Source of the DNA: Escherichia coli
GTDB lineage: Bacteria > Pseudomonadota > Gammaproteobacteria > Enterobacterales > Enterobacteriaceae
Strand: one strand, 5' to 3'
Length of the DNA: 1,009 bases
Assembly: GCF_003334335.1 (NCBI RefSeq)
Contig: NZ_QOWQ01000130.1
The notes below the pieces were generated by a model. That model saw only the letters and a program-made list of their open reading frames with translations, ran no database searches and had not been told where the DNA came from. A program made the translations under genes and the position numbers. Positions 120-1,009 of the stretch are shown one piece after another; within the stretch, counting starts at the first letter, position 1, and every line of letters starts with the position of its first letter.

Positions 120-200
120 ATGAGCAAGAAATTTACAAAGGCTGTTTTGTCTGCGGCAATGGCAGGTGTTTTGTTTGGGGTTAGCTTTGATATTATGGCT
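120..200 (+). other. Predicted Sec signal peptide of the adhesin (residues 1 to about 27; cleavage probably after ...SFDIMA or ...DIMAA)
   Basis: Basic N-region (MSKKFTK), hydrophobic core (AVLSAAMAGVLFGV), then a small-residue A-x-A-like site. Layout matches the YadA signal peptide. The exact cleavage position is uncertain by one or two residues. Confidence 0.7.
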
Positions 201-1009
201 GCTGGTGAGCAATCTTATTCTGCTTTAAATGCTCGGAATGAAGCTGGGAGTGTTTATAAAATATATTATAACCCAGATAATAAAACGGCACATATTGATT
301 GGGGTAGCTTAGGTGATGTGGTAAAAGAGCGAAATAAGCCGATTTCACTTCTCAGTAAAATAGATGTCAATGGTAATGTTACAATTACCTCCGCAGACGG
401 TTCAACAACATTTACTGTTTATGATAAAGAAGTTCATGATTTCATGAAGGCTGTGCCATTAAAGGCATTTGGTAACGGAGATTTACTGACAGAACAGAAT
501 ATCCGTGACCTGTACAACCGCGTTTCAGCAATCCAGCAGATGAAAACCAACGTGGGCCTGGATAAGTATGGAAATGTGGCTGCAACACCGGGTGAAATAA
601 AAGAATACATGTCTTTACAGAGCTATCTGGCAGGGGAAGCAGCTAACTCAACTATTGGCCTTGATAAAAACGGTAAGCTGACCGAGGATGAGAAGGACAT
701 TGTAACACCATTACGTATTAACGACGGTGTTGTGACTGTTGCGAATGAGCTTGATGCTCAGAAAGGCAAGCTTGATGCTCAGAAAGGCGAGCTTGATGCT
801 CAGAAAGGCGAGCTTGAAGCGCAGAAGCAAAATCTTGGTAAACTGACCACGCGTACCGACAAGATTGATGCTGCGGCTGCTGCAACAGCTGCAAAAGTCG
901 AATCCCGCACACTGGTTGGTGTGAGTTCTGATGGCACCCTGACCCGTGCAGAAGGTGCAAAGAACACCATTTCTGTTAACGATGGTCTGGTGGCCCTGTC
1001 TGGTCGTAC
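120..1009 (+). CDS. Trimeric autotransporter adhesin (YadA family), N-terminal part; probably an Eib-type immunoglobulin-binding protein. Partial: 3' end lies beyond the window.
   Basis: ATG at 120 is the first start after an in-frame TAA at 99..101, and the frame stays open for 296 codons to the window edge. It is absent from the supplied ORF track, presumably because it has no stop in the window. Translation begins MSKKFTKAVLSAAMAGVLFGVSFDIMAAGEQSYSALNARNEAGSVYKIYYNPDNKTAHIDWGSLGD... and ends ...VANELDAQKGKLDAQKGELDAQKGELEAQKQNLGKLTTRTDKIDAAAAATAAKVESRTLVGVSSDGTLTRAEGAKNTISVNDGLVALSGR. The N-terminus closely parallels the YadA signal peptide (MTKDFKISVSAALISALFSSPYAFA). Heptad repeats indicate a coiled-coil stalk. 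I recall Eib proteins (EibA/C/D/E/F/G) as having a very similar N-terminus, but this is memory, not a search result, so no gene symbol is given. Confidence 0.85.
   Translation, partial: MSKKFTKAVLSAAMAGVLFGVSFDIMAAGEQSYSALNARNEAGSVYKIYYNPDNKTAHIDWGSLGDVVKERNKPISLLSKIDVNGNVTITSADGSTTFTVYDKEVHDFMKAVPLKAFGNGDLLTEQNIRDLYNRVSAIQQMKTNVGLDKYGNVAATPGEIKEYMSLQSYLAGEAANSTIGLDKNGKLTEDEKDIVTPLRINDGVVTVANELDAQKGKLDAQKGELDAQKGELEAQKQNLGKLTTRTDKIDAAAAATAAKVESRTLVGVSSDGTLTRAEGAKNTISVNDGLVALSGR
747..830 (+). repeat. In-frame 21-bp tandem repeat, four units (three near-identical, one diverged), encoding heptads ELDAQKG / KLDAQKG / ELDAQKG / ELEAQKQ
   Basis: Units: 747..767 gagcttgatgctcagaaaggc; 768..788 aagcttgatgctcagaaaggc (one mismatch); 789..809 identical to unit 1; 810..830 gagcttgaagcgcagaagcaa (six mismatches). 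Unit 1 starts at codon 210 of the CDS, so each unit is exactly one heptad. Confidence 0.95.

Follow-up and report, generated by a model that had tools for sequence, protein, structure and literature searches.

What protein is encoded by the open reading frame (ORF) that runs off the 3′ end of a 1,009-nucleotide (nt) stretch of Escherichia coli DNA (NCBI RefSeq assembly GCF_003334335.1, contig NZ_QOWQ01000130.1; the whole stretch is called the window below), and how much of that protein can be read from its relatives? A sequence-only reading had taken the frame for the first part of a YadA-family trimeric autotransporter adhesin (TAA) gene, probably of the Eib type. Eib proteins are prophage-borne TAAs (type Vc) of E. 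coli with roles in immunoglobulin (Ig) Fc binding, serum resistance and autoaggregation (PMC7247748, PMC5450701, PMC12511318). The evidence presented here makes us highly confident that the window consists of a 5′ cassette, probably regulatory, and then an eibA-type eib gene of about 425 codons, of which the first 296 are present.

The frame opens on the plus strand with an ATG at position 120, which corresponds to the annotated start of eibA, and continues without a single stop through 296 codons to position 1007; two further bases reach the end of the window, where the partial coding sequence (120–1009) runs off. By our own arithmetic, a stop-free run of this length would arise by chance with a probability of (61/64)^296, or roughly 1e-6. 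The window covers the first 70% of the gene, that is, codons 1–296 of a predicted ~425. No ORF of more than 80 amino acids (aa) is present in the other frames or on the opposite strand of the window, and the shorter ones found there (80 aa or less), which lie inside the coding and repeat region, were judged spurious.

The encoded protein is closely related to a characterised Eib protein. In a megablast search, the window shows 93.7% nucleotide identity, over 92% of its length, to eibA of the E. coli ECOR-9 prophage P-EibA (AF151091), and it also matches genes annotated as “YadA C-terminal domain-containing protein” in 27 of 5426 complete E. coli genomes, with 93.2% as the highest identity among them. 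At the protein level, the identity is 78% to EibA and 88% to the RefSeq YadA C-terminal domain protein of S1-CAM-02-A. The protein database holds 767 homologues at E ≤ 1e-10, with a best match of E = 1e-167 and identities of up to 94%; counts given below out of 120 refer to the best 120 of these 767, among which all entries with a named source are E. coli. The close family is narrow: a library of 1.84 billion cluster representatives contains just 33 clusters with a match at E ≤ 0.001. Four of the 33 were looked up: two are from E. coli, one carries no name, and one is a weak match (P0138, E = 2e-8) from the alga Closterium. Searches of the PDB by sequence and by fold return EibD (2xqh) as the sole related structure, while a PHROGs search matched only families of unknown function and an Rfam search of both strands of the window gave no match.

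The central proposals of the sequence-only reading are borne out by these results. A 296-codon open frame does occupy 120–1009 as the partial TAA gene it described, the similarity to TAA and Eib proteins that it asked to see lies far beyond chance, and the nucleotide and amino acid identities to EibA, together with the match to the EibD structure, support an Eib-type adhesin. We can sharpen this assignment to the headless EibA subtype, as opposed to the EibC/D/E/G type, on the domain order described in the next section. The word “probably” was of the right strength, because the Fc-binding coiled coil and the beta-barrel anchor fall outside the window. It was also correct that this is a known family and not a novel system, as no piece of the gene is new to the public databases and the family is well documented. 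As a group, Eib proteins act as accessory virulence and colonisation factors, which prophages carry in a small minority of E. coli, and the window reveals no new system and opens no long-standing question.

Domain order of the passenger and the expected C-terminus

The window protein was modelled as a monomer with AlphaFold2 (AF2) from an alignment of 85 sequences, giving a mean predicted local distance difference test (pLDDT) score of 80. The protein begins with a basic and then hydrophobic segment, MSKKFTKAVLSAAMAGVLFGVSFDIMAA, that by inspection is a Sec-type signal peptide spanning residues 1–27/28 (120–203): K3, K4 and K7 precede a 16-residue hydrophobic core, AVLSAAMAGVLFGVSF, which is followed by DIMAA. 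This signal peptide is identical to that of EibA, and residues 1–27 are disordered in the model, with a pLDDT below 50. The “YadA-like signal peptide” of the sequence-only reading is therefore present, the qualifier amounting only to an ordinary Sec signal peptide. The Eib N-terminal domain follows at residues 29 to ~111 (204–452) and is predicted with a pLDDT of ~90 to consist of a beta-sheet (strands 31–36, 42–51, 56–61, 86–90 and 97–101) and one helix (103–111). It has no Pfam, NCBIfam or PDB-fold match, the fold search having matched the EibD stalk and saddle only, and phrog_33417 spans residues 1–138. Beyond this domain lie a variable linker cassette, V112–L122 (VPLKAFGNGDL; 453–485), and a region of short helices and connectors at residues 125–179 (492–656), where the model places helices at 125–139 and 166–176 and short strands at 145–147 and 162–164.

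Pfam detects no YadA-like head repeats or neck in the window protein, and the model passes from the N-terminal domain straight into helices. EibA has been described in the same terms: an N-terminal “Eib region” of novel fold, without a YadA-like beta-roll (LPBR) head or a neck, is followed by a left-handed coiled coil, a saddle, a second left-handed coiled coil and the anchor (PMC12511318, PMC7568254). Collinear with EibA, lacking a head and neck, and with an N-terminal domain that the model joins to the coiled coil, the window protein belongs to the headless EibA subtype.

The stalk is a heptad coiled coil spanning V204–S262 (729–905), with the register running continuously from V204 to V260. 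Its a positions are V, L, L, L, L, L, T, A and V, and its d positions are V, Q, Q, Q, Q, L, I and T. AF2 predicts one long helix at residues 200–261 with a pLDDT of 90–94, and the left-handedness that we assign to the coil is that reported for the EibA stalk (PMC12511318). The coiled-coil stalk expected in the passenger of a TAA is thus seen in the register and in the predicted helix. Within the stalk, Tandem Repeats Finder (TRF) detects a tandem repeat of 21 bp in 3.8 copies (747–826; score 139) that encodes heptads of the form (E/K)LDAQKG. By our own arithmetic each 21-bp unit corresponds to one added heptad, or ~1 nm of coiled coil, with the register kept. The window carries four L[DE]AQK[GQ] units and EibA carries three; one unit is found in a single one of the 120 homologues, two in 63, three in 52 and four in 4. 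Further along the stalk lies the Ala-rich stretch AAAAATAA (residues 251–258; nt 870–893). The sequence-only reading had noted heptad repeats, an Ala-rich segment and a passenger region of roughly 180 residues ahead of them, all of which we recover, the non-repetitive stretch being ~175 residues long (29–203).

At the base of this stalk is the Eib “saddle” minidomain, R263–R296 (906–1007), and the window protein stops at its final residues, ...VALSGR. EibA and 108 of the 120 homologues match residues 261–296 without a single difference, and in an alignment with the EibD crystal structure 2xqh the segment falls on the saddle. Positions G267, D271, G272, L274, T275, G279, T283, V286, G289, L290 and G295 are near-invariant, and AF2 predicts a strand-rich saddle at 264–286 with a helix from 288. 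By alignment, the minidomain sits where the saddle of an Eib protein belongs, ahead of the C-terminal coiled coil.

A second element of this kind may be present higher up the fiber. The 27 residues G180–T206 (657–737), GLDKNGKLTEDEKDIVTPLRINDGVVT, fall in a gap of the EibA alignment; they are absent from EibA and present in 42 of the 120 homologues. BLASTP relates this insert to the saddle and its following helix (E = 5e-5), with the motifs G-x3-[DN]-G-x-L-T and N-D-G-[LV]-V in common, and the AF2 model contains a strand-rich element at residues 179–198 whose pattern of strands followed by a helix resembles the saddle (pLDDT 62–84). With moderate confidence, we propose that the insert is a second saddle-like minidomain; it is a known variant and, as far as could be found, an uncharacterised one. 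A third candidate at residues 144–158 (NVGLDKYGN) was dropped because it has no significant similarity to the saddle.

The remainder of the protein can be predicted from its relatives. All 75 homologues that carry ALSGR and end in NFEF, EibA included, have a 129-residue tail in which no more than three positions differ, and because the relatives share this near-invariant tail, we predict a complete protein of ~425 aa. In relatives that reach the C-terminus, ALSGR is followed by TDRIDAAVGAIDGRVTRNTQSIEKNSKAIAANTRTL..., and the sequence from there on aligns almost residue for residue with EibD (2xqh and 2xzr) and then with the YadA anchor (2lme), relative P0003 aligning to all three. PF03895 (YadA_anchor) is precomputed in the listed relatives that extend this far. 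The nearest DNA relative, a 1158-nt contig from GCA_030510385.1, continues 18 nt beyond the window (...ALSGRTDRIDAAVGAI), and ALSGRTDRIDAAVGAI includes the Asp position reported to be critical for Fc binding in EibG. A deletion up to and including the saddle of EibG keeps IgG-Fc binding, while D391A, just after the saddle, abolishes it (bioRxiv 10.64898/2025.12.25.695649). By analogy, the IgG-Fc-binding left-handed coiled coil (TDRID[A/Y]AVGAIDGRV...) would start right after the last residue of the window.

Together with the literature on its relatives, this domain order suggests how the complete protein may work. The Sec signal peptide (1–27/28) would take the chain into the periplasm, where the missing C-terminus of each chain would contribute four beta-strands to a 12-stranded YadA-type barrel in the trimer. 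The passenger would then be exported through this barrel to form a headless trimeric fiber, ordered from tip to membrane as the Eib N-terminal domain, helices and connectors, the saddle-like minidomain, the heptad coiled coil and the conserved saddle, with the length of the coiled coil set by the 21-bp repeats. Non-immunological binding of IgG Fc would fall to a left-handed coiled coil that likewise belongs to the missing ~129 residues. Trimerisation is known for EibA (PMC7568254); judging by its relatives, the window protein probably trimerises, binds Fc and contributes to serum resistance and autoaggregation.

A mosaic allele and the explanations for it

Each 40-residue segment of the window protein finds a 97–100% match in some homologue, and no homologue matches throughout. 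At the DNA level, the window is the same as the GCA_030510385.1 contig (P0002) apart from the linker cassette and one 21-bp unit. The linker difference, made up of 14 mismatches and one 6-nt indel, does not extend beyond about 451–500, and across this interval the window is identical to the contig that encodes P0008 (L005). Both the linker swap (33 bp) and the extra repeat unit preserve the reading frame. The allele therefore combines a P0002-type N-terminus, a P0008-type linker and a four-unit repeat, and it is new as this combination. Positions 850–1009 are 100% identical in several genomes, and at both of its ends the window consists of sequence that hardly varies among eib paralogues. The two-event difference from the nearest relative points to cassette exchange and repeat slippage between paralogues with near-identical 5′ and 3′ ends, and exchange of this kind between paralogous prophage loci would be the simplest explanation for the mosaic. 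What the window adds is one more mosaic allele, an illustration of how 21-bp repeat change and cassette exchange produce variation in stalk length and modules.

Might the mosaic instead not be a real gene, but either a copy that is truncated or decayed or a chimera that the assembly made from several eib paralogues of a single genome? In favour of this, eib-type 5′ ends occur at a median of three, and up to five, places per positive genome; many of the database relatives lie on contigs of 1–2 kb that break inside the gene, and no database protein matches the window throughout. However, the frame is intact across 296 codons, and the window differs from the GCA_030510385.1 contig by two clean in-frame events, each variant of which is found in other real alleles. 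A short-read artefact would be likelier to switch parent within the long identical stretches than to copy one isolated cassette. A chimera is less likely than cassette exchange with slippage, and overall we consider an artefactual or decayed gene very improbable. We regard it as equally improbable that the gene is real and encodes an Eib-like TAA without Ig binding, resembling the recently described Cla adhesins and acting in aggregation or adhesion only. The residues that bind Fc do lie past the end of the window. Cla proteins, moreover, share the saddle and anchor, lack the Fc-binding residues and show that a saddle-bearing prophage TAA can be without IgG binding (bioRxiv 10.64898/2025.12.25.695649), and STEC1585 has a different, head-bearing TAA behind a related upstream region. 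Against this, the last 36 residues of the window are those of EibA and of the 108 homologues noted above, and all 75 relatives ending in NFEF continue with the EibA tail, TDRIDAAVGAIDGRV..., which keeps the Asp, with Ala next to it, as in the IgG-binding EibG. The GCA_030510385.1 contig, identical to the window outside the two cassettes, likewise continues TDRIDAAVGAI.

Several observations nevertheless weigh against the assignment of an Ig-binding, eibA-type adhesin to this locus. The window itself shows nothing on expression, trimerisation or Ig binding, and both the anchor and the Fc-binding segment lie outside it. There is no significant Pfam or NCBIfam match on the 296 residues, as expected since the anchor, the sole domain modelled in these libraries, falls beyond the window end. 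An exact protein look-up found no record, and the allele-specific DNA pattern was not found in IMG/VR viral or JGI metagenome contigs, so neither the 3′ part of this particular gene nor the genes beside it have been seen. Finally, the saddle-like insert rests on a monomer prediction with a pLDDT of only 62–84.

Two further properties of the allele are worth recording. The GC content climbs from 34–38% in the 5′ cassette, signal peptide and N-terminal domain to 50–52% in the stalk and saddle, which suggests that the modules have different origins. Additionally, the published eibA typing primers (PMC4352079) have sites at 296–315, with one mismatch, and at 587–606, with three mismatches; two of the three lie 5–6 nt from the 3′ end of the reverse primer, and PCR typing of this allele might be weak because of these mismatches.

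Upstream cassette and prophage setting

Comparison of genomes shows that positions 1–119 (plus strand) form a 5′ non-coding cassette common to paralogous eib-type genes, which probably holds the promoter and regulatory region. Across 5426 complete E. coli genomes, window positions 1–140 recur 70 times with 99.3% identity, in 27 of the genomes. The cassette precedes eibA-type genes as well as an Eib-like gene with an unrelated passenger in phage PhiR5_2, from which the window diverges abruptly from codon 8. In that comparison the cassette, which includes at least 220 nt upstream and codons 1–7, is ~99% identical, and the passengers behind it are only ~25% identical. A promoter and terminator scan of the window returned no more sites than chance, with two promoter-like sites against 1.9 expected. 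The best −10/−35 pair (74–102) was rejected as a promoter because it would leave almost no leader. The window has G at position 78, where P-EibA, S1-CAM-02-A, PhiR5_2 and KY176 all have A; the only −35-like hexamer found thereby reads TTGAGC instead of TTGAAC, and the small ORF described below encodes Ser in place of Asn.

Two elements within the cassette are the only mildly unexplained items of the window. The first is a perfect 11-bp inverted repeat, whose right arm, TTCGGAATTTC, occupies positions 6–16 and whose left arm lies just upstream of the window. The complete repeat, GAAATTCCGAA-16 nt-TTCGGAATTTC, is seen when P-EibA, S1-CAM-02-A and PhiR5_2 are aligned (L001 3777–3814); it is annotated only as “stem_loop” in AF151091 and forms a 13-bp hairpin in the RNA fold. 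Since it is AT-rich and has no T-run, a protein-binding palindrome or RNA hairpin is likelier than an intrinsic terminator. The second is a small upstream ORF of 25 aa, MRAARHQIFFIYPMLSCFICIQIIL (32–109, plus strand). The ATG of this ORF is preceded at a distance of 7 nt by AGGAG (20–24), a much better Shine-Dalgarno sequence than that of eib, and 10 nt separate the stop of the ORF from the eib ATG. This ORF is annotated in none of the records examined. Upstream of another prophage TAA (L007, STEC1585), in a region of 75% identity, the ATG, an AGGA and an open frame are all kept, and the core of the ORF, ACATCAGATTTTCTTTAT...ATCCGATG, shows no nucleotide change. A leader peptide and a cis element are both possible because of this nucleotide-level invariance, and the core fits a peptide no better than a cis-regulatory element. 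We do not claim the long-range RNA pairing of GCUCAUG (small-ORF start) with CAUGAGC (eib start) that is seen in the P-EibA leader fold, because the complementary bases are lost in the diverged STEC1585 upstream region. The sequence-only reading noted that Eib expression in E. coli ECOR-9 was reported to depend on the separate ibrAB island, and this agrees with the title of Sandt, Hopper and Hill (J Bacteriol 2002), as cited in PMC8065619; our statements on ibrAB, and on IgG-versus-IgA specificity, rest on titles or secondary citations of this kind.

In relatives, the eib-type gene follows lambdoid tail genes (J, tail fiber and DUF4376). This arrangement is found in P-EibA, three RefSeq genomes, two draft contigs and the induced phage PhiR5_2, and at several of these loci a 156-aa ORF (orf156-like) and then an S6-peptidase (EaaA-type) autotransporter gene lie downstream. 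By analogy, the window gene is probably also located on a prophage. Two of the loci illustrate how the passengers differ. PhiR5_2 (L003 6120–7379) encodes a headless TAA of 419 aa with several DxDGxLT saddle-like motifs, in which a near-identical 5′ cassette and a saddle-to-anchor module enclose a different passenger. STEC1585 (L007 2606–3757) encodes a TAA of 383 aa, possibly of the Cla type, which has a YadA-like head as a different passenger, a saddle-to-anchor module and an upstream region that is just 75% identical.

It is conceivable, although we offer the idea only tentatively and consider it doubtful at present, that eib loci constitute a cassette-shuffling system in which near-invariant 5′ and 3′ blocks serve as recombination anchors for the exchange of passenger modules. 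Here, the 5′ block could be the ~220 nt plus 7 codons, and the 3′ block the region from saddle to anchor, with several prophages per genome taking part. The exchanged modules could be the N-terminal domain, the linker, the optional second saddle and one to four heptads, and regulation, for instance by IbrAB or through static-culture induction, might act on the conserved upstream small ORF or the palindrome. If true, shuffling would yield surface variants that differ in antigenicity and length, and the EibA stalk would have, in the second saddle-like minidomain, a structural variant that is so far uncharacterised.

Comparison with known systems

YadA of Yersinia, the prototype of the family, shares with the window protein a signal peptide and a coiled-coil stalk, and the four-strand anchor of the window's relatives is homologous to its own (2lme, E = 1.5e-18; NF033478 C-terminal match). 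The head, neck and collagen-binding repeats of YadA are missing from the window protein, however, and the passengers are unrelated in sequence.

EibD (2xqh, 2xzr) and EibG are closer. They share the saddle, the type of 5′ cassette and the prophage context, as well as an N-terminal “Eib region” according to PMC12511318, and their IgG-binding coiled coil and anchor are nearly identical to those of the window's relatives. They differ in combining a YadA-like beta-roll head with a neck and a right-handed coiled coil and in producing chains of cells, whereas EibA-type proteins have none of these three elements and produce clumps (PMC12511318, PMC7568254).

EibA itself (P-EibA, AF151091, AAF63234; 392 aa) resembles the window protein in its start codon, signal peptide, N-terminal domain and headless architecture, in its left-handed heptad stalk with LDAQKG units, and in its Ala-rich stretch, saddle and last 36 window residues; the 119 nt upstream differ at two positions. 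It lacks the 27-residue insert, has three heptad units where the window has four, and carries the linker AASGKTDDIKTNL, which differs from VPLKAFGNGDL of the window and is two residues longer. About 30 further substitutions are scattered over the N-terminal domain and connectors. Closest of all is an insert-bearing EibA subgroup of E. coli “YadA C-terminal domain-containing proteins”, with P0002 (on the GCA_030510385.1 contig), P0003, P0004, P0008 and WP_338670922 as examples. No member of this subgroup matches the window throughout, but all share 88–94% identity with the window protein, have the same domain order and, like it, carry the saddle-like insert.

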